DNA from: Candidatus Aenigmatarchaeota archaeon
Lineage (GTDB): Archaea > Aenigmatarchaeota > Aenigmatarchaeia > CG10238-14 > SCSR01
Direction of reading: 5' to 3'
DNA length: 64,000 nt
Assembly (NCBI GenBank): GCA_038998585.1
Contig: JAVZGQ010000004.1
Location: forward strand, 260 to 64,259
Part shown: positions 1-63,904 of the stretch, piece after piece
How the letters are laid out: every line of letters starts with the position of its first letter
How positions within the stretch are numbered: position 1 is the stretch's first letter
Notes under the pieces: model-generated
Told to the model about the DNA's origin: nothing
What the model saw: the letters and a program-made list of their open reading frames with translations, nothing else
Databases searched by the model: none
Made by a program: the position numbers and the translations under genes

Positions 1-2
1 TT

Positions 3-404
3 GGTTTACCGGCAGGGCCTGACATCGAGAGTTCTGATGAAATAATAATAGTAGAGGGTAGAGCAGATGTTTTAAATCTTCTTAAAAATGGGGTTAAAAA
101 TGTGGTTGCAATAGAAGGTGCAAAAATACCCCAAACAATAGTTGATTTAACAAAAGAAAAAATAACAATATTATTCGTTGATGGTGATAGAGGAGGAGAC
201 TTAATAATCAAAGAAATGCTTCAAGTTGGAGAGGTAGATTACATAGTAAAAGCTCCCGAAGGAAAAGAGGTAGAGGAATTAACGAAAAAAGAGATATTCA
301 AGGCTTTGAGAGAAAAAATACCTGCAGATCAATATAAAATTGAACCAAAAACAAAAGAACTGAAAGATTTTATTTCAAAAAATCCTCAAGAAAGCTCGGT
401 TTGA
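3..404 (+). CDS. dnaG: DNA primase DnaG (Toprim domain), 5' end cut by window edge
   Basis: Frame open from nt 3; IIIVEGRADVLNLL..VAIEG..ILFVDGDRGGDLI shows the Toprim Glu and DxD motifs of archaeal DnaG. Confidence 0.8.
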   Translation, partial: GLPAGPDIESSDEIIIVEGRADVLNLLKNGVKNVVAIEGAKIPQTIVDLTKEKITILFVDGDRGGDLIIKEMLQVGEVDYIVKAPEGKEVEELTKKEIFKALREKIPADQYKIEPKTKELKDFISKNPQESSV

Positions 405-922: not shown

Positions 923-975
923 ATTTTTTAATAGTAAAATAAAAGTTTAAATTTAATAAAATATATTTTAATTTT

Positions 976-1239
976 ATGACAGAAACAAAAATTAAGGCAG
1001 CCGATGTTATAGGTAAGACGATAATAAGTGAGGAGACGGGTAGGAAGTTTGGTGTAGTAAACAACATTGATTTTGTAACAGAAAGTGGGGAGCTACTAAA
1101 CATTATAGTTGAGCAACCAACAAAATATTTAATCGATCTTAATCTAAAAACAGACGACAAGGGAAGGTACTTAATTCCATTCAGTGCAGTAAAATCAGTT
1201 GGAGATTTTGTGGTAGTTAGCGAAAACGAATTAATATAA
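976..1239 (+). CDS. PRC-barrel domain protein
   Basis: 87 aa; VIGKTIISEETGRKFGVVNNIDF...YLIPFSAVKSVGDFVVV resembles archaeal PRC-barrel proteins. Confidence 0.55.
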   Translation: MTETKIKAADVIGKTIISEETGRKFGVVNNIDFVTESGELLNIIVEQPTKYLIDLNLKTDDKGRYLIPFSAVKSVGDFVVVSENELI

Positions 1240-1257
1240 AAAATATTTTAATCTCCT

Positions 1258-2247
1258 TTACTTAAACCATTTTATTTCATCTATTCTCCATTTTGGGTTT
1301 ATGATATCATTAAAATTTGATTTCCAATTATTTTTGTAAGCCAGAAGACCAGTCCAAGCCACCATAACCCCATTATCCCCACTGTATTTATTAGGCACTA
1401 CAAACATCTTTACTGCCCTTTCTTCACACATTTTATTCACCATATCTTGCAGTCTTTTATTTGCAGCTACCCCACCAACTAACAAAACTTCATTTTTTCC
1501 TGTGTGGGCCAAAGCCCTTTCTGTCACTTCTGTCAACATAGCAAAACAAGTTTCTTGTAGAGAATAAGCAATATTTTCTTTTGAAATACCTTTTTTTAAT
1601 AAACTAATGGCCGCGGTTGCAATTCCACTATAACTCACATCCATTCCTTTAACCACATAAGGCAATTCTATATATTTTCCATTTTTAGCTAATTTTTCAA
1701 TTTCAGGGCCGCCGGGCATAGGAAGACCCATTTCTCTCGCAACCATATCCAAACAATTCCCTATTGGAATGTCTTCAGTTTCTCCAAACACTCTATAAAC
1801 TTCTTCAACAAAAGCTATTATTTGAGTATTTCCTCCAGACAAATAAACGAAGATAGGATCTTCGGCTTTAGTTGTAAGAAGACCAATCTCTAAATGTGCT
1901 ATTTGGTGACAAACAGGGATTAAAGGCTTACCTATTTTTTTTGAAATATCTTTAGCAAAATTCGCACCAACTAATAGACAAGGTGGTAAGCCAGCTCCAG
2001 CAACGTAAGCTATTATATCAACATCTTCAATTTTCAAACTAGCTCTTTCCAGAGCATTTTTAAGAACTCCATCAGCAACATTCTCATGATGAGATTTCGC
2101 CTCATTCGGCACTATACCTTTACCTAAAGCTGGTATATAAACACTTCTTTCATCTGCTAGAATTTCTCCCCTTTCATTTACAATTCCAATTCCAAATGTA
2201 TGGGCGCTCGACTCAACTCCAAGGCAAATTAATTCTTTTTCTTTCAT
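1258..2247 (-). CDS. kae1: tRNA N6-adenosine threonylcarbamoyltransferase Kae1
   Basis: 329 aa; LGVESSAHTFGIGIV N-terminus, metal-binding VCHQIAHLE and overall Kae1/OSGEP layout; no fused Bud32 domain. Confidence 0.9.
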   Translation of the reverse strand: MKEKELICLGVESSAHTFGIGIVNERGEILADERSVYIPALGKGIVPNEAKSHHENVADGVLKNALERASLKIEDVDIIAYVAGAGLPPCLLVGANFAKDISKKIGKPLIPVCHQIAHLEIGLLTTKAEDPIFVYLSGGNTQIIAFVEEVYRVFGETEDIPIGNCLDMVAREMGLPMPGGPEIEKLAKNGKYIELPYVVKGMDVSYSGIATAAISLLKKGISKENIAYSLQETCFAMLTEVTERALAHTGKNEVLLVGGVAANKRLQDMVNKMCEERAVKMFVVPNKYSGDNGVMVAWTGLLAYKNNWKSNFNDIINPKWRIDEIKWFK

Positions 2248-2401
2248 AAGATCAATTATTTAAAATTATATAAAAATTAAAAAATCTATGGATGTTGAAG
2301 GATTTTCTACCTTGTATAAATAATCGGAAAAAAATATTCAAGAGAAGATTGTTTAAGATAATCTAGTAGTATTTACATTAAAAAAATATGAGTGTAATTT
2401 T

Positions 2402-4576
2402 ATGAAAGACATAGAAATAGTTGATAAAGTTTTGTCTTTATATAACTTTAAGGAACTTAATCCGATGCAGAACTTAGCTATTAAATCAGGTCTTCTTAAA
2501 GGAAGAAATATGGTTATATCAGCTCCCACAGCTAGTGGTAAGACTTTATGTGCTGAGATAGCAATGTTAAAAACTTTTTTTGAAAAAAAGAAGAAGAAGG
2601 TTATTTACACCGTTCCTCTAGTAGCGCTAGCTGGAGAAAAATACCAAAATTTTAAAGAAAAATACGAAAAACTGGGATATAAAATAGCGATTTCTGTTGG
2701 GGATTTTGATTCAAGTGATCCTTGGCTTACTGATTATGATTTGATTGTTTGTACGAATGAGAAGCTAGATTCTCTAATAAGACATGGAGCCGGATGGGTT
2801 GAAGAAATTGGATTAATAGTCGTTGATGAAATTCATCTTTTAAATGATCCTAGTAGAGGACCGACTCTTGAAATCTTGTTGACCCGATTGAGAGAAATCG
2901 TGCCAGGAGCACAAATTCTTGCTTTGTCTGCAACCATAAACAATGCTAAAGAACTTGCTGAATGGTTGGATGCACAACTTTTAAAAAGCGATTTCAGGCC
3001 AGTTAAACTTTACGAGGGTGTTTGTTATGATTCAAAGATTTTCTTTTACAACAAAAAAGGATACGAGTTGAGTAATTTGGAACCAGAGTCAGCTATAGCA
3101 GAAAATGTTTTAAAACTAAAAAAACAAGCTTTGTTTTTTGTTGCGACGAGAAGATCTACAGAAAACTTAGCAGAAAAATTAAGTAAACTAACCAAGTTTT
3201 ATTTGAAAAAGGAAGAGGAGAAAAATCTTTTAGGGCTGTCTAAAGAAATATTAAACGTTTTAGAAGTACCAACACAACAATGTAAAAGGCTTGCATCTTG
3301 CATTAAAAGTGGAGTGGCATTTCATCATGCTGGATTGTTGGGAAAGCAAAAGAGATTAATAGAAGAAAATTTCAGACATGGATTAATTAAAATAATAGTT
3401 GCAACACCAACTCTTGCCTTTGGTGTAAATTTACCTGCTTTCCGTGTTATAATTAGGGATTTAAAAAGATATTATCCTGGTATAGGAACAGTTTACATTC
3501 CAGTTCTAGAATATAAACAGTTTGCTGGCAGGGCAGGAAGACCAGCTTATGATGAGTTTGGCGAGTCTGTATTGATAGCAAAAACAGAAGAAGAGGCTCA
3601 AGATATGGTCGATCATTTTATTATGGGTCAACCAGAGGACATTAAATCCAAGCTTGCCTTAGAGCCTATTTTGAGGATGCATACATTAGCTTTGATTGCG
3701 AGCGAATTTTGTAATTCAGAAGAATCTTTAAACAAATTTTTCTCAAAAACTTTTTACGCTTATCAATTTGGGAATACATTGATTTTAGAAGAGAAAATAT
3801 ATAATATTTTGGAACAGCTTATAAGTTGGGGACTCGTTGTTTTTAAAAATGGAAAATTTTTAGCCACAAAAATAGGCAAACGTGTTTCCGAACTCTATAT
3901 AGATCCTTTAACAGCTCATCAATTCATAGAAGCTTTAAAAAATATGATTAAAAAGAAAGTCCATCCTTTTGGATTGTTGCATTTGATTTCAAACTCAGTT
4001 GAAATGAGACCTTTGCTTTCTGTAAGGGTAAGCGAGTTTTCAGAGTTTGAAGATGTTTTGGTGAAAAGAGAGGATGAGCTTTTACAAAAAATTCCAGATG
4101 AATCTGAAATTGAGTTTGATGATTTCTTGAGAAGTTTGAAGACTGCATTGATGTTTGAAGCTTGGATAGAAGAAGCTACAGAAGATGAAATTTTAACCAA
4201 GTTTAGAGTTGCTCCGGGAGAATTTTATGGAAGAAGGGAAATTGCTGACTGGCTAATTTACTCTTTACAAGAGCTTGCTTTATTACTTGGATATAAAGAT
4301 TTGTTAAAAGAGATAAGAAAGTTGAGAATTAGGATGGAATATGGTATTAAAGAAGAACTTATACCTTTGGTTAGAATGAAACAAATTGGACGTATAAGGG
4401 CAAGAAAGTTGTTTAATTCAGGAATAAAGTCTTTGTTAGATTTGAGGAATATATCAATTGATAAACTTTCAGTTATCGTTGGACCAAATGTTGCAAGGAT
4501 TATTAAGTGTCAATTAGAAGGAAAAAGAGAAGATATGAAAAAGATAGATAAACAACAAACTCTTAAAAAATTTTAG
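2402..4576 (+). CDS. hel308: Ski2-like DNA helicase Hel308
   Basis: 724 aa; Walker A APTASGKT, DEIH box, C-terminal ratchet/HhH region; ends in TAG. Confidence 0.9.
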   Translation: MKDIEIVDKVLSLYNFKELNPMQNLAIKSGLLKGRNMVISAPTASGKTLCAEIAMLKTFFEKKKKKVIYTVPLVALAGEKYQNFKEKYEKLGYKIAISVGDFDSSDPWLTDYDLIVCTNEKLDSLIRHGAGWVEEIGLIVVDEIHLLNDPSRGPTLEILLTRLREIVPGAQILALSATINNAKELAEWLDAQLLKSDFRPVKLYEGVCYDSKIFFYNKKGYELSNLEPESAIAENVLKLKKQALFFVATRRSTENLAEKLSKLTKFYLKKEEEKNLLGLSKEILNVLEVPTQQCKRLASCIKSGVAFHHAGLLGKQKRLIEENFRHGLIKIIVATPTLAFGVNLPAFRVIIRDLKRYYPGIGTVYIPVLEYKQFAGRAGRPAYDEFGESVLIAKTEEEAQDMVDHFIMGQPEDIKSKLALEPILRMHTLALIASEFCNSEESLNKFFSKTFYAYQFGNTLILEEKIYNILEQLISWGLVVFKNGKFLATKIGKRVSELYIDPLTAHQFIEALKNMIKKKVHPFGLLHLISNSVEMRPLLSVRVSEFSEFEDVLVKREDELLQKIPDESEIEFDDFLRSLKTALMFEAWIEEATEDEILTKFRVAPGEFYGRREIADWLIYSLQELALLLGYKDLLKEIRKLRIRMEYGIKEELIPLVRMKQIGRIRARKLFNSGIKSLLDLRNISIDKLSVIVGPNVARIIKCQLEGKREDMKKIDKQQTLKKF

Positions 4577-16048: not shown

Positions 16049-16945
16049 ATGGCAAGAAAGCGGAGATGGAAAATAGACCCATTAACTGGAATAAGATATG
16101 AAAGAGGAAGCTTAATGGATATAGTAAGTAGAGCTGAAAGAAATCTTACCAAAGGATTTGACTTCACTTATAACAGACCATTTAAATGTAAGCCAAGAAG
16201 TTACAGAAGAGAACGATATGAATACGAAGGTATTGACCTAAGCCAACTTCCACCATGGGCTCAGGCTTTAGTCGCAGTTATAATTCTAGCAGCATTGTTT
16301 TGGATTTTTGTTTTACCATCACTAGTCAATTGGGTTCAGCAAAATTGGATTTCCATTTCTATAGTCGGTCTTATTATCATCTTTATTGGGGCATTTATTT
16401 TGGCAAGAATGTGGAAGCAAAAGAAAATAAGGGAAGCTAAGAAAAGGGCATTTGAGCAAGAACAAATTAGCAAAGGTTTAGTAAAATTTGTTGACAGGCA
16501 TGGAAATGAAAAGTGGGGTAAACCTAAAGAAGTGGAGAGATGGAAAAAGGAAGATGAAGAAGCAAAAGAAAAAGAGAGTTTGTTCTATAGAGTTGTGAAA
16601 GAAATTGAAGAATTTACACCAGCTAAAGAAGAGCTTAGACATGAATATAACTATCAACTTAACTTACATGGTTGGTTAAAAAGGACATTTCCATCAGCAG
16701 TTATTGAAAAACAAAAAGGATCTTCAAGACCTGATATTGTAGTTGACAAAATAGCAATAGAAATTAAAGGACCTACTGGAAGAGCGGAATTAGAAACAAT
16801 TGCAAGTAAAGCTATGCGATATTTACATTATTATGAAGGATTAATTGTTGTTCTTTTTGAACTGAAGGTTAGCCCACAATACTATCAAGAATGGCTAGAA
16901 GGATTGAAAAGATACTTCCCTAATGTAAGAGTGATAGTAAAATAG
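16049..16945 (+). CDS. membrane-anchored protein with C-terminal PD-(D/E)xK nuclease-like motif
   Basis: 298 aa; two TM helices (about aa 70-120), charged coiled region, C-terminal RPDIVVDKIAIEIKG (PD...ExK). Confidence 0.4.
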   Translation: MARKRRWKIDPLTGIRYERGSLMDIVSRAERNLTKGFDFTYNRPFKCKPRSYRRERYEYEGIDLSQLPPWAQALVAVIILAALFWIFVLPSLVNWVQQNWISISIVGLIIIFIGAFILARMWKQKKIREAKKRAFEQEQISKGLVKFVDRHGNEKWGKPKEVERWKKEDEEAKEKESLFYRVVKEIEEFTPAKEELRHEYNYQLNLHGWLKRTFPSAVIEKQKGSSRPDIVVDKIAIEIKGPTGRAELETIASKAMRYLHYYEGLIVVLFELKVSPQYYQEWLEGLKRYFPNVRVIVK

Positions 16946-20494: not shown

Positions 20495-20592
20495 TGGACC
20501 GGCCGGGATTTGAACCCGGAGCCTCTTCATAGCAGTTGAACTCATGCCTTTTCCATAATTAAGGAAGCGATCTACCATTGATCTACCGGCCC
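20495..20592 (-). tRNA. tRNA-Ala with 26 nt of intervening sequence (12-nt insertion 20549..20560 plus about 14 nt more within 20530..20548)
   Basis: Acceptor GGGCCGG/CCGGTCC has the G3:U70 Ala identity pair; D arm GATC-AATGGTA-GATC; T arm CCGGG-TTCAAAT-CCCGG. Anticodon GGC (favoured) or UGC depending on the second splice. Confidence 0.7.
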
Positions 20593-31099: not shown

Positions 31100-31862
31100 A
31101 TTTATGTTTGGGTTTTTTGAATTTTACAAAAAGTTTGGTAAAACCCCAAATTATAATCAATATTATGCCAGAAATAAGGAAAATCATGAAAATTTGATTG
31201 AGTTGATTAAAAATCAAATCTAGTATATTTTCGCTTATTGGCATTTCTTTTAAAATCTTTTCTGACATCAATTTTTTGAAATATGGTAGTAAGAAATAAA
31301 ATATTCCTATGAAGAGGAACTCGAAGCCAAAAATTTTGAGCCTGCCTGTCCAGGTTTCTATTGAGACGAAAAGTAAAATACCAAATATTATTGTTAATAT
31401 GTAGAGGGGTTTTATGATGCTGCTGAAAAAATTATGTCCCTTAAAACTGAAGAAAACAAAAATATCTTCACCAGTTTTTATTTCTTTTAAACATTCAGTA
31501 ATTTCACATTCGTAATTCTTATAATATGTTTGGTTAAAAGATTTTTCGGCTATTAGATTAAGCATATAGTTAGGGTTTGTATTTATTATTTCAGAGCATT
31601 TCAAGCTTATGTTGTTTGGTAGTTGTATAGATTCATCTGGTTTTAGATTACAATATGTTGCTGTAGCGTTATATATTTCCTCAATTTCTAACGTTCTATT
31701 CTTCACAGCCTCTTTGAAAAGAATTGTAAAAAGATTTTTTGCGTTATCATAGTTAGTAAGATTGTATATGAAAAATGTCAAAATCGATAGAGATAGAAAA
31801 AGTGAGAATAAAAAGAGTGTTGCGGTTTTTGTTATGTTTCTTATTAAACCCATTTTAATCAT
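31092..31862 (-). CDS. integral membrane protein, unknown function
   Basis: 256 aa; N-terminal TM, extracytoplasmic Cys-containing domain, four C-terminal TM helices. Confidence 0.5.
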   Translation of the reverse strand: MIKMGLIRNITKTATLFLFSLFLSLSILTFFIYNLTNYDNAKNLFTILFKEAVKNRTLEIEEIYNATATYCNLKPDESIQLPNNISLKCSEIINTNPNYMLNLIAEKSFNQTYYKNYECEITECLKEIKTGEDIFVFFSFKGHNFFSSIIKPLYILTIIFGILLFVSIETWTGRLKIFGFEFLFIGIFYFLLPYFKKLMSEKILKEMPISENILDLIFNQLNQIFMIFLISGIILIIIWGFTKLFVKFKKPKHKSK

Positions 31863-32565
31863 CTTTAAAAAAACTTAATATTTTTTTCTGTTTCTTTTTA
31901 TTTAAAACTTCTTCTTTTGTTATTCCAAGAGCTTTCAAGACACGCATACTTGCAGGGAGAATCTGATGATTAATATAATATTCTTGATCATATTCACCAA
32001 GTTTGACATCTTCAACTGGTTCAGCTCTATCTGAAATAGAGCCAGAGCCTTTTACTATCACGAAACCTATGACACTCCCCTCACCTATTGGTCTTCCCCT
32101 AGCTTTTGCCTTTTCTGCTGCTCTTACATGCGGTCCAATTTGTTCATATTGGTTTAATGGGCGGGTAATTTGTTCAAAAATTGTCAAATCTTCTAAAGGC
32201 ACTTTTCCCTCTTTAATTTTTTTAATTGTATCGCGAACTAACTGAACCGCTTTAGCAGGATTTTTTTCTCTAAGAATTGTTACTAAAACTTTTCTTTGAA
32301 TTTCTTTTGCCAGTGCACACCAATCTCTACGAACAGTTTTTCGGTGCTAGAAAGCACTTTCGAACCCACGAACTTCTAGATTCCCTTCATAATCAATTAA
32401 AGCGTATCTTTTCTTTGCACCTACTTCACCTTTTTCTCTAGCCACAAAAATCCCAACTTCATACAAACCTCTGAATTCTAGTTCTATAATCCCTGGTAGT
32501 TGTTTGTTAACTTTTTCCGCGAATTCCAAGGCCCTTTTCTTCAAATATTCAATTTTTTCATTCAT
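31855..32565 (-). CDS. polB: family-B DNA polymerase, C-terminal (thumb) cistron, interrupted by a 21-nt TAG-containing element
   Basis: ATG 32565 preceded by GAGGTG. NEKIEYLKKRALEF..LPGIIELEFRGLYEVGIFVAREKGEVGAKKRYALIDYEGNLEVRGFE, then [SAF*HRK], then TVRRDWCALAKE...GPHVRAAEKA...EYYINHQILPA, all in one frame. Confidence 0.85.
32338..32358 (-). other. candidate bulge-helix-bulge mini-intron inside polB
   Basis: Minus strand TTCG(32364..32361)-AAA-GTGCT-TTCT-AGCAC-CGAA(32343..32340)-AAA: 4-bp central helix flanked by two 3-nt bulges plus a 5-bp inner hairpin. Contains the in-frame TAG (32349..32347). Confidence 0.6.
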
Positions 32566-32798
32566 TAATTACACCTCGCTCTTATTATAATATAGAATCT
32601 TAATATTTAGTGAATTCACAATTTTACCTTATAACCACATAACCATCACTACTGAACAGATCTAGAAGATATTCAATACCACACTTTTTGAGAATTAAAT
32701 ATGTTAAATTATATGATCAATTTTCATCTTAGAACTCCAAGATTCAAATTATAGATAAACTTTGTGAAAAATAGATAATTCTTTATTTTTAATTATTT

Positions 32799-34595
32799 TT
32801 AACCAATTGTAGCGAAACAAGAATCAGTATCAGCATAAATTACTTCAAAACCTTCTCTTTTTGCCATTTCTATTACTTGAGTTATATAATATCTTCCAAA
32901 AGCCGCAACCGCGGCTCCACACTCTCTTCTATACCATCTGCTCCCAAAAAACCCGAAATAACCATAGACTGCATTACTAAGTATCTTAAGACCATGTTGC
33001 ATATTATTCAATTTTTTGAGTTCTTTAGAATTTTTCTCAATCTTTTTTATTTGTTCTTTAATTTTTTTTCTCTTTTCAATTAATTCCTCTAAATGTTTTG
33101 GTATGAAACCTTTATTTTTTATACAAAAATGCCACTTGGTTTCAGGAACTTTGTTTTTTTCTTTACATTCAATATGCTCACAATTTAGAGTTTCTGGACT
33201 TATGTTATGAGTAACTATTATTGTTGGGTACAAACTTCTGAAATCAAAAACTAAAATGTCTGAATGAATTCCCTTTTTTGGTTCGATTACTATTGCTCCT
33301 TTGTAAGCTCGATCCATCTTCCTCTTTTCTATTTCTTCTGTTTTTGGTCTATTCGGTATTATTACGTTATCAATAAAGGCCTTTCTCATATAAAAGGCTT
33401 CTACAAGCTGGGAATAAGTGTTCCTACACACATCAAATGCCAAAAGACCAGTTAATCTGCTTAAGGTAAATATTTGAGGCAAGATTAGTTCAGAGAGTTT
33501 AAAAGTTAAGACAGAATCATGTAAGCTATATTCAGCCAATCTTTCCATTTCCTTCTTTTTACTCCAAATTTCCACCATTTCCTTATATTTCAATTCCTTT
33601 TTACCAATTCCAAGCAATTCTTGTGCCACCTCATTCAAAGTTAAAACTTCGCTTTTCAGATTTGCTGATAAAATATGGTCAACGAAGTTGAATAGGTCCA
33701 TATGCACCCTTCCCTTAATTTTTGTTGAGCTTACTCTACCTCTTCTAACTAAATTTATTGTTGAGTTATCTCTCCCAAGTTTAATGGGGATCTTCAGTTC
33801 ATCAGCTCTTTCTTTAAGCTTTGGAAAATCAAAATTATCACCATTATAAGTGCATATGAAGTCTGGATCTTCTTCTTCTACAATTTCTAAAAACCTTTCT
33901 ATTATTTCTTTTTCACTTTTGATTGATTCTACATAATCTGGCTGATTTTCCCAGTGTTCAGATGTTAAGACTATTTTCTTTCCTTTATTTGAAACGAGGC
34001 TTAGCATAATAATTTTTGATTTTCCATTTTCTTCTATGAATTCTATATCAAAGGCCAGGACATTTAGCTTAACATCTTTTTCTCGTTTAATTGGCTTAAC
34101 AGAATTAGCTTTTATTATACAGCTCACTTTATAATTTTCTTTATTCTCCATCTCTTCTCCATCTACCTCAATCCAGTTCATAGGCTCAATTTGCCTGTCT
34201 ATCAAGTAGCGCTTGTAGAGTGGGATATCATACTCATAAGTTTCTTCTACATCTTCCCAATCTTTCACAATTTTTCTTATTTCCTGAATTTTTCTTGGGT
34301 TATCAATCACCACTTTCAGAATTTTTATATCACCAAGCTGTAATTTTTTTTCTGTTACTATAATTTTGAGTATTTTAGTTTCAAGATGTTTTGTGTCAAT
34401 AGTTTCAATTTTTTTCTTAACCTCGCCGATCTTGTCTTTCTTTGGCATTACATAAAAGTAAGGATAAAAGGTTTGATCCAAAACCAAGAAGCTCTTGCCT
34501 TTAGAATCTTTACAGTAAAGTCTGACAGTAGTTTTATTTTCTATTACTGTGTAATCTGCATCTAAAAGGAGTAATTTTTTTTTCAATAAAATCAC
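32799..34595 (-). CDS. polB: family-B DNA polymerase, N-terminal cistron (exonuclease, palm and fingers through motif C)
   Basis: 598 aa; ExoI FDIEF, ExoII YNGDNFDFP, motif A DFRSLYPTII, motif B KILSNAVYGYFG, motif C YADTDS; ends ...CFATIG-TAA. Confidence 0.9.
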   Translation of the reverse strand: MILLKKKLLLLDADYTVIENKTTVRLYCKDSKGKSFLVLDQTFYPYFYVMPKKDKIGEVKKKIETIDTKHLETKILKIIVTEKKLQLGDIKILKVVIDNPRKIQEIRKIVKDWEDVEETYEYDIPLYKRYLIDRQIEPMNWIEVDGEEMENKENYKVSCIIKANSVKPIKREKDVKLNVLAFDIEFIEENGKSKIIMLSLVSNKGKKIVLTSEHWENQPDYVESIKSEKEIIERFLEIVEEEDPDFICTYNGDNFDFPKLKERADELKIPIKLGRDNSTINLVRRGRVSSTKIKGRVHMDLFNFVDHILSANLKSEVLTLNEVAQELLGIGKKELKYKEMVEIWSKKKEMERLAEYSLHDSVLTFKLSELILPQIFTLSRLTGLLAFDVCRNTYSQLVEAFYMRKAFIDNVIIPNRPKTEEIEKRKMDRAYKGAIVIEPKKGIHSDILVFDFRSLYPTIIVTHNISPETLNCEHIECKEKNKVPETKWHFCIKNKGFIPKHLEELIEKRKKIKEQIKKIEKNSKELKKLNNMQHGLKILSNAVYGYFGFFGSRWYRRECGAAVAAFGRYYITQVIEMAKREGFEVIYADTDSCFATIG

Positions 34596-42225: not shown

Positions 42226-43349
42226 TTTTCCTCCTCAAATTTTGCAATTAGTTCAATCATTCCTGTTCCAGATGGAATTACTTGGCCTATCATTACATTC
42301 TCAAAAATTCCCTTGAATTCGTCTACTTCATTCCTTATAGATGCTCTTACCAAATGTTTGACTGTTTCTTCAAAGGCGGCTCTTGCAAGGATGGATGTTT
42401 GGGATCCAGCAACACCATATCTACCTATAGATTGAATTCTTCCTGTAGATGTCATGATATCGCCAACAAGAGTGATGTGTCTTATGTCGACATTTAGACC
42501 TTGTTCTTGTAAAGTTTTAATAGACTCCTTAATTATAACATTTCTGGCAGCTTCTATTCCCAAAACCTTGAAAGTTTCGTGAATGTCATTTGTGATGGTT
42601 CTTGTACCATCGACTTCTTCCATTTTTAAAACTTCTTCAAGATTTGAACCGAGTGTGTTTATCAACCAGTCTTCCCCCTCTCTTCTAACAATCGCATTTT
42701 TAATATCTTTTATACCCTCAAAATGAAGGTTAAGTATTTTTTCTCTCAATGCCTGAAGTTCTTTGATGTCAGATTCTTTTTTTGGAGACACAACAATAGT
42801 TTTTGTCCTTTCCTTTACTCGAACTTCTGGGAAACTTTCTTTAATCAGTTTTGCTATTTTACCCAATTTCCTCAAATCTTCCACATCTATTTCAATACTA
42901 TTTTCATTCAGGTTTATAGAAACACCCTTCACTATGTTTGAAATTCTTTTCTCAACTATACTTTCGGCTAAATCTCTTGCACTTTCCATGTTGTTGAATT
43001 CTCTTTTAAGATAAATCTCCATCACAGGAGTTTCCAATTCTTTTTTAGCATCAAAAATTTCTACAAGTCTAGGCAAACCGTAGGTGACCTTAATTCCCGC
43101 AGAACCAGCAAAGTGATAAGTACGCATTGTCATTTGAGTTGCAGGTTCTGAAATGCTTTGAGCAGCAATGATTCCAACAGCCTCTCCAGGTTCAAACATC
43201 AATTTAAGGAAATTTTTTTTAACAGTCTCCAAAAGCTTCTCTTTCTTCTCTTGACTTAATTTTAATTCTTTCGCTGTTTTTTCCACTTCATCTATTAAAA
43301 TTTTTGGAAGTTCAACTTCAGATAAATTGTTCTGCAATTTTTCTGACAT
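42222..43349 (-). CDS. rpoA2: DNA-directed RNA polymerase subunit A'' (Rpo1C)
   Basis: 375 aa; [28 protein letters not shown] trigger-loop region; overlaps the A' stop by 32 nt. Confidence 0.95.
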
Positions 43350-46300
43350 TTATCCCACCCCTTTCAATTTTAGATGGGTCCAGACCATCTTCCCCAGCTA
43401 AAAACTGTATTATTCTGTTGGAACTATCTCTTACAGTCCCATCGTACTCAACTTTAAGATCTTGAAGTGCTCCAACGAGTCTTCTTTCCATGTAACCAGA
43501 GTGTCTAGTCTTAAGAGATTTATCCATCAAAGATTCTCTACTGTTCATTGCGTCAAAGAAAAACTGGAATGGTGTGAGACCACTTTTAAACCCTCTGTCA
43601 ACAAACCCTCTTGCTTGTAAGCTCATATCTCCAATTTTGAAGTGTGGGAATGTTCTTTCATGATAGCCTTTTTCCACTCTCTCGCCCATTATAGTCTCTT
43701 GACCTATGAGAGCGGTTGTTTGGACAAAATTCACGATACTACCTCTTGCTCCACTTCTTGCCATGTTAATTATGGAAGTTTCTTTCACACATTTCATTAG
43801 TACTTCTTCCACTTCATTTAAGGCTTTACTCAACCTTTTCTTTATCAATGTTTCCAGACTTTCTTTTGGAGTCCTACCTATCAAAACTTTAAGTTCTCCT
43901 TTTTCAAAATCCTTGATCATATCATCTACATCTTTCTTAACATTTTTAAGTACAATTTCTATTTCATCCCTTGCCTCTTTTGGCAAGTCTAGCTCTGAAA
44001 TACTAACAGAAAATCCGTATCTTGTTATATATTCAAGAGAAAGTTTTATCATCTTGAACAAAAAGTTGCTAGTGAACTCTGCCCCGTATTCTCTCTCCAT
44101 CTTATCAATTATTTTTCCATCTTCGTCACCCAAGGCTGCTTTATCGATTACCCCAGAAATAAGTTTACCGTCTTTAATTATCACCATATCACCTGACTTT
44201 GCCTTATGTTGGATTGAAAAATCTTTAGGCAAGAATAAATTAAATATTTCTTTTCCTGTCATAGTTTGTTTGTCAGGTATTTCTATCTCCGGGTCAACCT
44301 TTCTTATTAGGTCTACAAAATCTCTCCTCTCAAATTTTTTATCGTCTTTAGTCAATAGATAAAGGCCGGAAATACAATCTTTTGTGGCACCAATAATAGG
44401 ACCAGAGAATCTAGGACTTCTTATATGTTTGTGAACATCCATTAAACACAAAGCTTCTACTTGGGCCTCTTCTGTTTGCGGTAAGTGTAAGTTCATTTCA
44501 TCTCCATCAAAGTCAGCATTGTATGGTGGGCAGACAGCCGTGTTAAGCCTGAATGTCTTGAATGGCATCACTTTAACCCTATGTGCCATCATACTCATCC
44601 TGTGAAGACTAGGCTGTCTGTTGAAGAGTGAAATATCACCATCTATCACATGTCTTTCAACTATGTAGCCTGGTGCAAGTTCTTTACAAATTTCCTCTTT
44701 ATTCGACTCTGTGATTTTTTTCCTTCTTCCGTCTGGTCTTATTATGTAATTTGCACCGGGCCAGACTTCACTACCATTCATAACAAGTTTTTTCATTTCT
44801 TCCAGATTCTTTTCATTCACTTTAATAGGGACTGTTAATTCTTTAGCTACGATTTCTGGCACACCAACTTCGTCCAAATCGATCAAAGGATCAGGGCTTA
44901 TAACAGTTCTAGCCGAGAAGTTCACTCTTTTTCCAGCGAGATTTCCTCTAAATCTTCCTTCTTTTGTCTTCAATCTTTGAGATAGAGTTTTCAAAATCCT
45001 ACCCGATCTATGTCTTGCTGGAGGCACGCCAGAAAGCTCATTATCAAAATAAGTGCTAATATGATATTGAAGAAGTTCCCAGAGATCTTCGATGATGAAA
45101 TCTGGTGCACCAAGATCTATGTTTTCTTTTAACCTTTCATTTATCCTCACAATATCGACAAGCTTGTGTGTTAAATCATCTTCCGACCTTTCTCCAGTTT
45201 CTAGAGTTATCGATGGTCTTACAGTTACAGGCGGTATTGGCAATACTGTAAGGACGAGCCACTCGGGTCTCGTGTTTTTAAACCCAATAATGCTCAAGTC
45301 TTCTGTTGATATTTTTTCTAATCTTTCCCTAATTTTTATTGGATTGATTATTTCATTGTCTTCAATAAAAGTATAGGGTTTAATGAGCTTAATTTTTCCT
45401 TGTGTTGAACTACAGTATGGACATTTTTTCTTTACAATCTTGGCAAGTTCCTTGAAAGGAATTTTTTCACTTTTGATTCTTTTTAAATCTTTTTCCTCAA
45501 TTAATATTCTACCACATTTTCTACAAAACATCTTCAAAAGCGTGAGTATAAACTTTACATAATGAACATGAATTATTGGTCTTGTTAATTCAAGTAAGCC
45601 AAAATGTCCCTGGCATTCTCCAACACTACCACCACAAGTCCTGCATCTTACACCAGGATCAACGACTCCTAGCCTGGGATCCATAAGTCCACATTCGATC
45701 GGATATCCTTCTTGGTCATACAGCTCTGTTTTTGTAATTTTTGCTACTGCCATTTTTTTTATCAATTCTGGATTGATTAGACTAAACTCCATTTTCTTGA
45801 CCGCCATTTCTTCACTCCCTAAAACAATTTTCGGATAAATTAACATGCTCTTTAGCTCATCTAACATTAGCTTGAAAGCATAACTCATCTCTACATCAAA
45901 GATCTTGCTTTCACCACATATAGGACAATACTTCCTGTTCTTTACCTTATCATATATAGCGACTAAACCACATTCAGAGCAGATAGGAACAACAGTTTTA
46001 TCAGAATCGAATCTCTCTTTCAAAACAAGAGCTGCGCCATGTGCTATCAAAACATCTTTTTCCATTTCACCTAATCTTAAACCACCTTCCTTACTTCTTC
46101 CCTCTGTTGGTTGCCTTGTTAACAGGGTTACAGGTCCTCTAGATCTTGCGTGGATCTTGTTCGAGACAAGGTGATCTAGCTTTTGATAGAAACACGGTCC
46201 AATAAAAATTTCGGCCTCAAACTTTTTTCCAGTTCTCCCATCAATCATAACTTCTTTACCATCGTCTCTAAAACCATAAGACTTTAACATTTTTCTTATT

Positions 46301-47604
46301 TCTTCTTCTGATGTTGGGTTAAAAATCGGGGAGTAAATAGTTTTACCAGAGATGGCTGCTACTTTTGCTGCAATTTGTTCGAGCAATTGACCAACTGTCA
46401 TTCTTGATGGAATTCCATGCGGGTTGAATATTATATCAGGGACAATCCCGCTTTCGGTGAAAGGCATATCCTCTTGCGGAAGAACAATTCCTATAACACC
46501 TTTTTGCCCATGTCTACTTGAAAACTTGTCTCCTATCTCAGGAATTTTCAAGCTCCTCATCCTAACTTTAACAAGTTTTGTTCCATCTATCGTTTCTGTT
46601 ATAAAAACTTTGTCGACAATGCCACTATCACCATGTCTTATTCTTACAGAAGTTTCCCTTATGTTTTCTATCCCTGTTATAAACTGGTCCATAGTTCCTA
46701 AGAACCTCAGAGGAGAAATCCTTCCAACCAAAATTTCATCAGACTCTATCTTAGTTTCTTGATTAACTATACCATCTTCCGGCAAATGTTTGTAAGCATC
46801 TTCACCAGCATAGCCTCTAACCCCTGGCTCAGGGATCCCTATTACATCTTCTTGCCCTCCCATGTATCTTTTCTGTTCAGCCTCATATGTTCTGAACATA
46901 TAAGACCAAAAAAGCCCCCTTTGAATTGAGCTTGAGTTGATTATTATTGCATCATCCATGTTAAAGCCCTGGAAGCATGCAATAGCGACTATTACATTTG
47001 TTCCATTTGGGTGTTTTTCATATCCTGCAATTTTGTGTGCATGGGTTTGGACAAGAGGAACTTGAGGATAAATCAATACATTGGACTTGGTGTCAACTCT
47101 GTTTAAATAGTTTGTGGCGAAAAGGCCTATTGATTGACCAACCATTTTTGCCCCATAGTTTACTCTATCTCCTCTGTTAAATTCAGCATAGGGGATGAAG
47201 GACGCCAAAAAACCAAGAATTGTGGCCGGATTAATCTCAAGGTGAGTATGCTCAGGAGTTAAATCCCCTTCCTTTAATGCAATATAACAATTTTCCTCTT
47301 CCTCAGCATCGAGATATTCAATTACACCTTCCGTTATTAAATCTTCCCATTTCATGGCACCTATTTTGAGTTTTTGTATGTGCTCTTCTGTTAGTTTAGG
47401 CTTGCCATTTTCAACAATTATAAGAGGTCTTCTCACCCTTCCACTGTCCGTCAAGATTTTGACTTCATCTAAATGTTTATGATAAGCGACATTAACCTGA
47501 TAAGGAATTAAACCCTTTCTTCTTCTATCTCTTATTTCGTTTACAAATTTTTCAGGCTCTTTTGTCGTCCCGACAAACTTACCATCAATAAATACATCAG
47601 CCAT
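43318..47604 (-). CDS. rpoB1-rpoA1: fused DNA-directed RNA polymerase subunits B' (C-terminal half of B, aa 1-599) and A' (aa 600-1428) in one frame
   Basis: B' part: [15 protein letters not shown], Zn ribbon CSECG..CPICG, ending [21 protein letters not shown]. It runs directly into [35 protein letters not shown] (A'). No stop between them. Confidence 0.85.
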
Positions 47605-49088
47605 TAAACCACCATTCTTTGAATCGAAGAGTAGAAATTCTTCTTTTCATTTTCATTTAGGCCACTTGTGATTTCTGCCATTATTGCAAGATATTTTCTT
47701 AGACCTATGGTTGCTCCTTCTGGTGTTTCGCTTGTACACAATTTACCAAAATGTGTTGGATGTAGCTCTCTTGCTCCAAAATGTTCTTGTGTTGAAGTGA
47801 GTGGGGAAAGTACATTCCTCATGTGGGAAATGGTTTTAACGAAGCTACCTCTTTCCAATCTCTGACTAACTCCCGTTCTTCCACCAATCCAAGTTCCTAT
47901 TGCAAGAGCAGAAACAATCTGGTTTGTTAACACATTTGATTCGACTATTGCTTGTAACGGTGGAATCCTGCCTCTTTTTGCAAGCTTTTGATAGTTGTAG
48001 ACTATCCTTGTTATCAATCCCCATTTTCCAAGAAGTATCGATCTTAACAAAATCTCTAAAAGATCACCCGAAAGTTTTATTCTCTTGTTTGAATAGTGAT
48101 CAAGATCGTCTTCCTCAATTTTTCCAAGATGAAGTTTTATCAGTTTTCCAATCGCCTTGCAAAGGAACAAGGCCTTGTCAATTCTTGCTTCCTGAGTTTG
48201 CCCCAGGTGTGGAAGGAAATATTTATCTATCAGTTTTGTCGCTCTCTCAACTCTACCCTCTTTTTGTGCTATTCTTATATGTTTTCCCAATTCATCTAAG
48301 GCTTCTTGTTTTGAGGTTATTTCTGTTTCGTAAAGATTTGTATAAAATTCCTTCTGAACTTCTTCGTCAGATGAAATAACATTTACAATTTCTTTGTCAG
48401 AGTCTAGCCCCAGAGCTTTTATCAGTATGACAACAGGAAGCTTTTCAACATTTGCAAAACTTATTGTGATTATACCGCTTGTTTTTCTCTCAAGCAAGTG
48501 TCTTTGTATATAACCATCTTTTTCAGAATGTATTCTTGCTATTTCAGTCACACTTCCAGAATCGATCTTTTCTACGATAATTCTATTTTGTGCTATTTCT
48601 TCAACCAAAACAAGAATTCTTTCTGTACCGTTGATAATAAAATATCCACCCGGATCGTCAGGATCTTCCCCTATTTTTATGAGCTCTTCTCTGCTCATAG
48701 TTGAAAGAGGGCATATTTTTGATTTGAGCATCACAGGCATGTCTCCAAAATTTACCACAACAGTATTGCTTTCTATATTGTTAAGAACAGGTGTCATCTC
48801 AACATACATTGGAGCAGCATAAGTTAGGTTCCTTACTCTTGCTTCTTGGGGCGTTATTGGTCTTACAGACCCATCAGCCTCTTTCACACAAGGATCACCG
48901 ATCTTGAAGCTACCGAGCTTTATTTTGAATTCACCAAGTTCAGGAACTTCTGGTTTAATGACACCAATTTCTTTCAAAACTTTTGGTATTCTTCTTGTTA
49001 TGAAGTCATTGTAAGAGTCTATCTGGAATCTGACAAGACCCCTATCTTTTACAAAGGCATCTACAAGTGTTAAGAATTTTGTGTCCAT
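47604..49088 (-). CDS. rpoB2: DNA-directed RNA polymerase subunit B'' (N-terminal half of B)
   Basis: Start set to MDTKFLTLVDAF (ATG 49088, 5 nt after the rpoH stop); TAATG overlap with the B' start at 47604. Confidence 0.9.
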   Translation of the reverse strand: MDTKFLTLVDAFVKDRGLVRFQIDSYNDFITRRIPKVLKEIGVIKPEVPELGEFKIKLGSFKIGDPCVKEADGSVRPITPQEARVRNLTYAAPMYVEMTPVLNNIESNTVVVNFGDMPVMLKSKICPLSTMSREELIKIGEDPDDPGGYFIINGTERILVLVEEIAQNRIIVEKIDSGSVTEIARIHSEKDGYIQRHLLERKTSGIITISFANVEKLPVVILIKALGLDSDKEIVNVISSDEEVQKEFYTNLYETEITSKQEALDELGKHIRIAQKEGRVERATKLIDKYFLPHLGQTQEARIDKALFLCKAIGKLIKLHLGKIEEDDLDHYSNKRIKLSGDLLEILLRSILLGKWGLITRIVYNYQKLAKRGRIPPLQAIVESNVLTNQIVSALAIGTWIGGRTGVSQRLERGSFVKTISHMRNVLSPLTSTQEHFGARELHPTHFGKLCTSETPEGATIGLRKYLAIMAEITSGLNENEKKNFYSSIQRMVV

Positions 49089-49092
49089 GATA

Positions 49093-49332
49093 TCAAGCCC
49101 CAACCACAACTCTATAATATATAGTTTCACCTGCAGTTGGACTCTTCCTTATTATTTTAACAATATCCCCAACTTTGGGATTTTTGTCAGCTATGGCAGG
49201 GTCTGTTATTAATATCCTTGGGAATTGTTTTAAACTAGCCTTATATTTTTTCAATACTTCTGCCTTTTCTTCTTCACTTAAAATTATGTGTTTTGGTACA
49301 AGATGGTGTTTATCTACTTCTATTTTTTTCAA
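49093..49332 (-). CDS. rpoH: DNA-directed RNA polymerase subunit H (Rpo5)
   Basis: 79 aa from TTG 49332 (GGGGTGAGG just upstream): KKIEVDKHHLVPKHIILSEEEKAEVLKKY... The longer track ORF (to 49467) runs into the 5S rRNA gene; GTG 49356 is an alternative start. Confidence 0.8.
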   Translation of the reverse strand: MKKIEVDKHHLVPKHIILSEEEKAEVLKKYKASLKQFPRILITDPAIADKNPKVGDIVKIIRKSPTAGETIYYRVVVGA

Positions 49333-58138: not shown

Positions 58139-58230
58139 AGCCCCGTGGTGTAGTGGTCAAGCACACAAGGCTCTGGTCATATGAGATTGGTGGTAACCTT
58201 GGGACGCCAGTTCGAATCTGGCCGGGGCTA
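58139..58230 (+). tRNA. tRNA-Gln (anticodon CUG) with a 19-nt intron at 37/38 (58177..58195)
   Basis: A1:U72 acceptor AGCCCCG/CGGGGCT, D arm as in archaeal tRNA-Gln, arm CAAGG-CTCTGG[19 nt]A-CCTTG, T arm GCCAG-TTCGAAT-CTGGC. Confidence 0.8.
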
Positions 58231-60125: not shown

Positions 60126-61027
60126 TTCAAATAACATTTTTGGGCACAGTTTCAGGAATTCCGAGTAAAGATAGAAATCACCCTGCCATTGTCTTGGAGT
60201 ATTTTGGTGAAGAGAAGGATAGTTTGCTTTTTGATTGTGGGGAGGGAACTCAGAAGCAGCTTATGCAATCTAGAATAAGCTTCATGAAAATAAAAAAAAT
60301 CTTCATTTCACATTGGCATGCAGACCACTTTTCTGGTTTGATCCCTTTAATTCAGACTATGAGCTTAGAAAAAAGGAAAGATGAACTCAAAATTTTTGGG
60401 CCAGAGGCAGAGAGGTTCGTTTCAAACATTTTGGACTTGGGATATTTTGGTTTGAGGTTTCCGATTGAGGCTATAAATGTCCCTTTTGAGGGAAGTGAAG
60501 TCGGATTGATTGATGAAGCTCGAGAGTATCAAGTTTTTTCAATTCCAGTCTTACATACAGTACCGTCAGTGGCATATTGTTTTCAAGAAAAGCCAAGGTG
60601 GAACATAGACACCAAAAAGCTTAGGGAGCTTGGTCTGAGAAGTGGGTCTTGGTTGAAGAGGTTGAAAAAAATTGGGAAAGTAGAATACAAGGGAAAAGAG
60701 ATAAAAATAGAAGATGTGGCAAATCTCAAACCAGGTTTGAAAGTGGTTTATTCTGGCGACACAAAGCCTTGTAGCAACATTTTAGAAATTTCCAAAAACG
60801 CTGATTTGCTTATTCACGATGGAACTTTTCTTGAAGAGGAAGAAGGAAAAGCTCATGCTGATGTGAAGCAAGCGGCAAAAATAGCAAAAGAGGCGAATGT
60901 TAAGCAACTTGTCTTAACCCATATAAGTAGGCGTTACACCGATGTGAAGCAATTAGAAGAAGAAGCTAGAAAAATTTTCCCAAACACAAAAGTCGCTTTT
61001 GACTTTATGCAAGTTAAACTAAAGTAA
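60122..61027 (+). CDS. rnz: ribonuclease Z (tRNA 3' endonuclease)
   Basis: 301 aa; HWHADH metallo-beta-lactamase motif, exosite region; ATGA overlap with cca. Confidence 0.9.
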   Translation: MIQITFLGTVSGIPSKDRNHPAIVLEYFGEEKDSLLFDCGEGTQKQLMQSRISFMKIKKIFISHWHADHFSGLIPLIQTMSLEKRKDELKIFGPEAERFVSNILDLGYFGLRFPIEAINVPFEGSEVGLIDEAREYQVFSIPVLHTVPSVAYCFQEKPRWNIDTKKLRELGLRSGSWLKRLKKIGKVEYKGKEIKIEDVANLKPGLKVVYSGDTKPCSNILEISKNADLLIHDGTFLEEEEGKAHADVKQAAKIAKEANVKQLVLTHISRRYTDVKQLEEEARKIFPNTKVAFDFMQVKLK

Positions 61028-61288
61028 ATAGTCAAGAACTTTTTTAATTTTTGGATATTTGGAGCAGTAGTTATCAGTTGCAATATGAATCAAAGCAGAA
61101 ACGGCTCCTTCTTTTCCGTCACAAACAAGACCAATTAAAAAAGCTGAAATTGGATCGTGGAATAAAATTCTGTGTTTTTTACCAAGGATCTTTACAGGAT
61201 AATCAATAGTTCTGTTTGTCTTTTCACAAGATTTTCCTGTTAAAATTTTTGAAATCTTTTTGTGAATATAGCGAGATGGCATTCTCAC
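61019..61288 (-). CDS. hypothetical protein (His/Asp-containing, 89 aa)
   Basis: Last gene of a tight 5-gene minus-strand cluster; HRILFHDP and HIATD segments; no family recognised. Confidence 0.35.
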   Translation of the reverse strand: MRMPSRYIHKKISKILTGKSCEKTNRTIDYPVKILGKKHRILFHDPISAFLIGLVCDGKEGAVSALIHIATDNYCSKYPKIKKVLDYLL

Positions 61289-61610
61289 CGCCTAAAAATT
61301 CAATTAATTCAGAGAGCACTCCTTCTTTTGCCAAAAAAGTTAATAGAGTGCCAAGCAAAAAAGAATTTACATCTAACTCGTCTCCTCCAGATTTAACTTG
61401 CTGCTCATAAAATGAAATTTTCTTGAGCATCTTTTCTTTGTCTTCGGCAGTTAGAAAAACATCTGAAGCAATTTTTGCTTTAAGCTCGCCAGCTTTTTTC
61501 AAATAGTTGTCTGAACTTTTTTTGATGATCTCCAAGTGTTTTTCTCCACCAATTTCAATTTCTTTCATGAGTTCTGAATATTCTACCAGTCTTGAAAGAT
61601 AGTCTTTCAT
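61224..61610 (-). CDS. hypothetical protein (helical, 128 aa)
   Basis: Abuts the upstream ORF with no gap; no family recognised. Confidence 0.35.
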   Translation of the reverse strand: MKDYLSRLVEYSELMKEIEIGGEKHLEIIKKSSDNYLKKAGELKAKIASDVFLTAEDKEKMLKKISFYEQQVKSGGDELDVNSFLLGTLLTFLAKEGVLSELIEFLGGENAISLYSQKDFKNFNRKIL

Positions 61611-63821: not shown

Positions 63822-63904
63822 TGGGTCTGGGCGGAGTTGAACCACCTTCTCGGCCTTGTTTGCCCTTGATTAAGGGCCGCGTCCTACCGTTAGACTACAG
63901 ACCC
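63822..63904 (-). tRNA. tRNA-Val (anticodon UAC) with a 12-nt insertion inside the anticodon (63860..63871, position 34/35)
   Basis: GGGTCTG..CGGCC-CTT[AATCAAGGGCAA]ACAA-GGCCG..GGTGG-TTCAACT-CCGCC-CAGACCC-A. Exon GCCC pairs with intron GGGC as a 4-bp helix between 3-nt bulges. Confidence 0.8.

Follow-up and report, generated by a model that had tools for sequence, protein, structure and literature searches.

Organization of the polB locus

The 64-kilobase (kb) window analyzed here (the whole 64,000-nucleotide stretch of contig JAVZGQ010000004.1, assigned to a Candidatus Aenigmatarchaeota archaeon) carries on its minus strand a family B DNA polymerase gene (polB) made up of two cistrons. The second of these is interrupted by 21 nucleotides (nt) that probably constitute a pre-mRNA intron of the bulge-helix-bulge (BHB) type. 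The N-terminal cistron (32799..34595; all polB features of the window are on the minus strand) encodes 598 amino acids (aa) that span the exonuclease domain and the N-terminal half of the polymerase domain, according to the open reading frame (ORF) list and Pfam matches to DNA_pol_B_exo1 and to DNA_pol_B (profile positions 9-236 of 453). Its C-terminal end is ...YADTDSCFATIG*. An AT-rich spacer of 233 nt (32566..32798) follows, with a Shine-Dalgarno-like GAGGTG (32577..32572) located 6 nt 5' of the ATG of the second cistron. In this clade the break between the two polB cistrons falls after motif C (YADTDS), and relatives share it.

The second cistron keeps a single frame from ATG 32565 to a stop at 31855, and its sole interruption is a TAG at 32349..32347. 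Exon 1 (32359..32565) contains 69 codons, MNEK...EVRGFE, and exon 2 (31855..32337) contains 160 codons plus the stop, TVRRDW...FFKDD*, and encodes the thumb domain. Without 32358..32338 the cistron encodes a 229-aa protein that covers DNA_pol_B profile positions 240-452 of 453, and the two cistrons tile the profile. Exon 1 of the window has been deposited as MEM5766401.1, “hypothetical protein QW423_02080”, from a Candidatus Aenigmatarchaeota metagenome-assembled genome (MAG). Exon-1 products of relatives are likewise annotated as hypothetical proteins or partial polymerases, which points to systematic misannotation of intron-split genes in these MAGs.

Anatomy of the insert

Around the interruption the minus strand reads ...GAA GTT CGT GGG TTC GAA AGT GCT TTC TAG CAC CGA AAA ACT GTT CGT AGA GAT TGG..., and the RNA form around the TAG is GGG UUCG AAA GUGCU UUCU AGCAC CGAA AAA CUG. 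The predicted intron (32338..32358) is A-GUGCU-UUCU-AGCAC-CGAA-AA, and its removal restores RGFE|TVRRDW. A central helix of 4 base pairs (bp) links both splice sites and pairs exonic UUCG (32361..32364), which consists of the Phe codon and the first base of the Glu codon, with intronic CGAA (32340..32343). The 5' bulge, AAA (32358..32360), has a helix on each side and is also predicted by RNAalifold; the predicted cut lies between 32359 and 32358. The inner hairpin (32344..32357), predicted by both RNAfold and RNAalifold, consists of GUGCU (32357..32353), the loop UUCU (32352..32349) and AGCAC (32348..32344). The in-frame TAG (32347..32349) consists of the final loop base plus the two bases that open the 3' strand of the hairpin. 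On the 3' side a bulge or loop, AAA (32337..32339), with a predicted cut between 32338 and 32337, is followed by a weak outer helix that consists in the window of G-C plus G-U and nothing more.

Cutting after nucleotide 2 of each AAA joins GAA to ACU and gives ...EVRGFE-TVRRDW.... Three adjacent deletion registers (32360..32340, 32359..32339, and 32357..32337) yield the identical spliced sequence. By its predicted pairing, the motif is the relaxed form (hBH or bulge-helix-loop) and not the strict hBHBh' form. The insert had been described in an earlier reading of the window (the original prediction), whose anatomy and coordinates proved correct to the base on the minus strand, including the weakness of the outer helix.

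Inserts at the same codon boundary in relatives

The boundaries of the insert can be defined without reference to RNA structure, from uninterrupted relatives and PolB structures. The nearest uninterrupted relatives (P0001 to P0003; 79 to 80% identity, about 226 aa, all from Aenigmatarchaeota MAGs) read RGFETVRRDW. This sequence is gapless across the junction in alignment with the Pyrococcus/Thermococcus PolB structures (3a2f and 5h12), in agreement with the colinearity with Pyrococcus PolB stated in the original prediction. A protein identical to the spliced sequence is absent from the protein collection searched, in which the top match is 80% identical.

An insert at the identical codon boundary is also present in ten further Aenigmatarchaeota loci, which come from independent assemblies. 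The carriers were found through their truncated gene products, after which the contigs were fetched; protein-based scans missed most of them. An exon-1 query (69 residues) gave 13 matches, among which were 12 truncated fragments of 49 to 73 aa, each terminating in RGFE plus 1 to 3 residues (one being the window's own product), and five further contigs were read after this search. The eleven loci were drawn from NCBI, JGI, ENA, and Logan assemblies. For the MAG with MEM5766401.1, GCA_030017875.1, SRR11061214, and JGI 3300021472, the source samples were metagenomes of hot springs and sediments. Their inserts are all distinct and measure, with the window first, 21, 23, 23, 27, 24, 24, 24, 24, 30, 26, and 23 nt.

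The same cut rule produces GFE|TVRRDW, the sequence of intron-less relatives, in all eleven loci. Every insert contains an in-frame stop 1 to 4 codons past the junction, with TAG, TAA, and TGA all represented. Furthermore, the length of four of the eleven inserts is not divisible by three, so that translation of the downstream exon is impossible in these loci without removal of the insert at the RNA level.

Two other loci were considered as intron cases and rejected. L025 (P0070) has an unsplit polB (953..2995) with a frameshift further downstream. In L026 (P0098), on a 694-nt ENA contig, exon 2 is joined to unrelated sequence: positions 1..145, 5' of the downstream exon, are not polB. L026 may represent a chimeric assembly or a different, larger insertion.

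Conservation of the RNA structure

Across the eleven loci the central helix UUCG/CGAA does not vary and is 100% paired, and the 5' bulge is exactly 3 nt long in every one (AAA in 10 loci and AGA in 1). The inner hairpin varies in sequence, occurring as GUGCU/AGCAC, GUACU/AGUAC, GGUUG/CAACC, and GUUGA/UCAAC, and in two loci the GGUUG/CAACC type is longer, at 7 or 8 bp. Compensatory changes, with both partners altered, are seen in four of the five pairs of the inner helix. The covariation score was 0.407, versus 0.146 ± 0.032 in shuffles, and 0 of 500 shuffles reached 0.407, although these controls overstate independence because the eleven loci are related. Controls with slid partners scored ≤0.15, and a covariation test on six sequences agreed with the eleven-locus version. 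RNAalifold recovered the same helices unguided.

The exonic side of the central helix also differs between allele types. The Phe codon is TTC in 11 of 11 intron-bearing alleles versus 3 of 12 intron-less alleles (Fisher P = 3e-4, a value that ignores relatedness), and TTC supplies the C of the central-helix C-G pair.

The bare shape (a 4-bp helix with a 3-nt bulge and a hairpin of 5 bp or more) was counted 51 times in the window, versus 29 ± 6 times in Markov shuffles, and is by itself no evidence. The improbable part is the register, i.e., the coincidence of the motif with the insert boundaries: when random 21-mers from the window were placed at the site, 105 of 2,000,000 satisfied the rule. 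A 52-nt fold of the window segment gave a z score of −0.33, with the central helix missing from the minimum-energy structure, whereas the minimum-energy fold of a 60-nt segment does include it. Single-sequence folding is uninformative here, since the two folds disagree on the central helix.

Selection on the downstream exon

The exon 2 frame is full, with 158 to 165 codons, in 10 of the 11 loci; in the remaining one, L032, the contig ends after 66 codons. Between intron-bearing loci the nonsynonymous divergence (dN) is 0.1 to 0.3 and synonymous sites are saturated, and the ratio of nonsynonymous to synonymous divergence (dN/dS) is 0.04 to 0.17 where defined. These values indicate that the downstream exon is under strong purifying selection.

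Predicted splicing of the polB mRNA

The 21 nt are best read, with a probability of roughly 0.85, as a relaxed BHB pre-mRNA intron in the gene for the C-terminal subunit of a two-cistron family B DNA polymerase. An mRNA intron of the endonuclease (BHB) type was what the original prediction had proposed, and the junction, covariation, frame-shifting inserts, and selection all agree with it. Random decay of the locus in relatives had been put forward as the outcome that would speak against it, and the opposite was found, with both structure and exons conserved.

In the proposed mechanism, exonic UUCG and intronic CGAA would form the 4-bp helix. On its 5' side the 3-nt bulge would be closed by the 5-bp intronic hairpin, and on its 3' side three A's would lead into almost unpaired exon. 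The tRNA splicing endonuclease (EndA) would cleave at 32359|32358 and 32338|32337, and a ligase of the RtcB type would seal the exons. Cleavage by EndA would leave 2',3'-cyclic phosphate and 5'-OH ends, and the intron would come free as a circle. The 229-aa thumb subunit would then be made from spliced mRNA only, and unspliced mRNA would give a 72-residue fragment, ending there because of the early in-frame stop that every version of the intron contains. It is speculation that this universal early stop is a safeguard against a polymerase with an insertion of 7 to 10 residues in its most conserved stretch.

Introns in three of the five tRNA genes of the window bear on the enzyme that would be required. 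The tRNA gene at 63904..63822 (minus strand) has a 12-nt intron, AATCAAGGGCAA, within the anticodon (about position 34/35), and that at 20592..20495 (minus strand) has two mini-introns, one of 12 nt, AATTATGGAAAA, and a second of 14 nt. These 12- to 14-nt introns lie at noncanonical positions and have the cut pattern ..|A....AA|, as in the polB insert; the bulge signature that the original prediction had described as shared with tRNA mini-introns is thus real in both genes. The third gene (58139..58230, plus strand) has a 19-nt intron that could not be placed in strict BHB register. Since window tRNAs carry introns of 12 to 14 nt, the endonuclease of the organism must already be able to process relaxed substrates of very small size. 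In DPANN archaea, such introns have been linked to EndA variants that contain an extra loop (PMC5829648).

Several observations weigh against this interpretation, in addition to the relatedness of the eleven loci. The outer exon-exon helix that closes the 3' bulge in the strict hBHBh' motif is nearly absent, which makes the 3' site a loop rather than a true bulge. This helix is weak everywhere, with 55 to 60% of cells paired across loci, and a relaxed 3' site (a loop and not a bulge) is not cut by strict EndA types (PMC5829648). The inner helices represent only two or three sequence types. The G+C content of the window is 32%, and BHB-like shapes are common by chance in AT-rich DNA. Neither EndA nor RtcB was recognized by eye among window ORFs of at least 140 aa, which were not scanned with a profile library. 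Finally, the intron of L001 holds an ATG in frame with exon 2 (P0057 begins MKYRKTVRRDW).

Alternative explanations

This ATG bears on the alternative that fares best, although it appears improbable: no splicing takes place, and PolB consists of three polypeptides (598 aa, 72 aa, and an internally started C-terminal piece) that assemble noncovalently. The clade already tolerates a polB split after motif C, and gene callers give a 163-aa product for L001, with its in-frame ATG in the insert. In the window the first in-frame start past the TAG is a GTG at 32202, 48 codons on, yet purifying selection includes the first 48 codons after the intron, which precede this start. L003 is without a start codon between the stop and exon 2, no Shine-Dalgarno motif lies 5' of exon 2, and starts and ribosome-binding sites are missing in most lineages. 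The break would, moreover, fall inside the most conserved stretch, RGxExVRRDW, and the invariant 4-bp helix, the fixed 3-nt spacing, and the compensatory changes would be left unexplained. A three-piece polymerase is therefore conceivable only for the L001 lineage.

Translational recoding, through either read-through of the stop or hairpin bypass as in phage T4 gene 60, is very unlikely. In the gene 60 gap a stop stands shortly past the last sense codon, by or in a hairpin, and the ribosome passes from take-off over the hairpin to landing. The polB inserts resemble this gap in the placement of their stop, and in the window a GAA precedes the insert and recurs close to the end of it. A ribosome landing on this second GAA would nevertheless read on into AAA CTG TTC (E-K-L-F), which is the wrong frame and not TVRRDW. 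The landing codon required is AAA, AAT, or AAG, versus GAA or GAG at take-off, so that no matching pair of take-off and landing codons restores the frame, and BHB geometry is not predicted by bypass. Read-through is impossible for inserts of 23 or 26 nt. There is no single dedicated in-frame stop, and the use of all three stop codons excludes TAG recoding of the pyrrolysine type. TAG is in addition an ordinary stop in the window, as had been noted originally, terminating 4 of 46 large ORFs, including hel308, nop5, and the ORF at 16049..16945.

A dead gene or artefact (a small palindromic insertion, or an assembly or sequencing error, in a decaying locus) might be suspected from the draft state of MAG assemblies and from the NCBI call of the first fragment as a hypothetical protein, but is scarcely credible, since the recurrence of the feature in eleven loci from independent NCBI, JGI, ENA, and Logan assemblies, together with purifying selection, excludes assembly error or decay, and the loci retain two intact exons with dN/dS well below 1, no further stops or frameshifts, and an insert structure preserved through compensatory changes.

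Distribution, gain, and loss

Every named relative belongs to Candidatus Aenigmatarchaeota, in which the predicted intron is patchily distributed. It was present in 1 of 11 loci in a protein-based scan of species-representative genomes and in 0 of 6 JGI metagenome loci in a protein-based scan of metagenome contigs. In a neighbor-joining tree of the downstream exon, made with the six carriers then known, carriers are scattered among intron-less sequences. The closest comparison is that of L006, with a 27-nt intron, and intron-less L014, whose first cistrons share 96% identity and whose downstream sequences share 93%, and which differ by the exact presence of the intron. Gain or loss must in this case have been recent and precise. 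More generally, a minority of close relatives carry the intron and near-identical ones lack it, suggesting that it is gained or lost quickly.

In the same pair (L006 3738..4426 versus L014 2990..3651), divergence is visibly greater on the 5' flank of the intron site than on the 3' flank. This asymmetry may mark a recombination or conversion tract tied to gain or loss of the intron.

Two further proposals, which would make the intron more than a relic tolerated passively, are offered tentatively and are unlikely to hold: the intron could be an actively mobile BHB element targeting the palindromic TTCGAA of polB, or it could serve as a tRNA-splicing-dependent checkpoint on thumb-subunit production. 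A mobile element would explain both the presence or absence of the intron between genomes 96% identical in the neighboring cistron and the requirement for TTC. Under a checkpoint, the early stop would be a fail-safe against translation of unspliced mRNA, and the system would be an archaeal analogue of regulated unconventional splicing of the HAC1/XBP1 type.

Comparison with known systems

Among known systems, the cbf5 pre-mRNA intron of Crenarchaeota comes closest, and by analogy the machinery and logic would be the same. Both are short, ORF-less introns in coding sequence, of 16 to 44 bp in cbf5 (Watanabe 2002; Yokobori 2009, PMC2738675) and 21 to 30 nt in polB. In both, the intron is placed at a highly conserved or catalytic stretch, the BHB-type motif is often relaxed, and a patchy distribution implies that the intron was gained or lost repeatedly. 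The frame is preserved in some copies but not in others, and genome annotation has missed both introns. The hosts differ, cbf5 encoding a pseudouridine synthase and the polB cistron the thumb subunit of a replicative family B DNA polymerase, as do the lineages (Desulfurococcales and Sulfolobales versus Aenigmatarchaeota of the DPANN archaea), and the polB element falls outside the cbf5 family. An early in-frame stop is present in all eleven polB copies, unlike in cbf5. Splicing of cbf5 has been shown experimentally, whereas that of polB is predicted from sequence.

Relaxed BHB introns of archaeal tRNAs (hBH, HBh', or bulge-helix-loop [BHL] forms; Marck and Grosjean 2003; PMC5829648) share with the polB element the 4-bp central helix, the 3-nt bulges, and cuts after the second bulge nucleotide, and those of the window share its |A...AA| ends. 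In polB, however, the host is an mRNA without a tRNA body to aid recognition, and of the two flanking helices one is an intronic hairpin and the other is nearly absent. In Haloferax volcanii the splicing endonuclease likewise acts on an mRNA, at the BHB of HVO_1309 (PMC7714728). That motif lies in the 5' untranslated region (UTR), outside the reading frame, and its removal rebuilds no protein, unlike in polB.

HAC1 and XBP1 mRNAs are spliced by Ire1 together with tRNA ligase or RtcB; Ire1 cuts twin stem-loops, and the reaction is a regulated stress switch. The polB element is similar in its very short intron (26 nt in XBP1), in the predicted cutting by an endonuclease and sealing by a tRNA-type ligase, with no spliceosome involved, and in that removal alters the product of the downstream frame. 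The nuclease and the recognition motif are different, and it is HAC1/XBP1 splicing that constitutes a regulated stress switch.

Archaeal polB genes are known for inteins and splits, including the split intein of Nanoarchaeum and the two-subunit PolB of Methanothermobacter. PolB inteins occur in the same gene, a hot spot for selfish insertions at conserved motifs. They are in frame and removed at the protein level, whereas the polB element is 21 to 30 nt long, often out of frame, and predicted to be removed from RNA. The two-cistron split of the clade resembles other archaeal split PolBs, and some relatives have a LAGLIDADG ORF between the cistrons. The spacer of L006 (2199..3725) contains a 508-aa LAGLIDADG/helix-turn-helix ORF on the polB strand with a weak intein-splicing match, and that of L003 (1897..3437) contains a 386-aa LAGLIDADG ORF on the strand opposite polB. 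An intein or homing endonuclease may have left this split as a scar.

According to a 2020 study, which added one 5'-UTR case from Haloferax, cbf5 was the sole BHB intron reported until then outside tRNA and rRNA (PMC7714728). No report of such introns in polB, DPANN, or Aenigmarchaeota was found in the literature searched, whose coverage left out subscription journals and in which cbf5 was the only precedent within a coding sequence. Both the host gene, which encodes a replicative polymerase, and the lineage are new, and the natural series of covarying variants stands out for its clarity. If confirmed, this would be the second archaeal coding sequence with an endonuclease-dependent intron after cbf5 and the first in DPANN, and such an intron would sit in an essential replicative DNA polymerase. 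The eleven natural variants and the intron-less sister alleles would amount to a ready-made set of mutants for defining the requirements of the splicing endonuclease in an mRNA and would offer a clean system for how mini-introns are gained and lost. Confirmation would also mean that real genes in DPANN MAGs are being fragmented by annotation into “hypothetical proteins”, so that intron-aware gene calling is needed.

Other candidate introns and the RNA polymerase genes of the window

The window was also scanned for further mRNA introns that would fuse ORFs. A first scan was too lax, and a strict one returned mainly AT-only motifs at gene boundaries. At 61019..61610 (minus strand), two ORFs in different frames, of 128 and 89 aa, share 65 nt, and an AT-rich BHB-like motif lies at this overlap. 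The corresponding 34-nt candidate (61257..61224), the best besides the polB insert, would fuse the 128-aa to the 89-aa ORF. It was rejected because every homologue of the upstream ORF stands alone, with a length of 103 to 136 aa, and the junction is not spanned by any family. A match at 49113..49089 was likewise rejected and lies upstream of the likely start of rpoB''.

The rpoB'' gene (47604..49130) is a separate ORF upstream of an uninterrupted 1428-aa ORF (43318..47604, minus strand) with Rpb2 domains 4-7 (RpoB') followed by Rpb1 domains 1-5 (RpoA'). The two domain sets are about 6 residues apart with no stop between them, an apparent B'-A' gene fusion.

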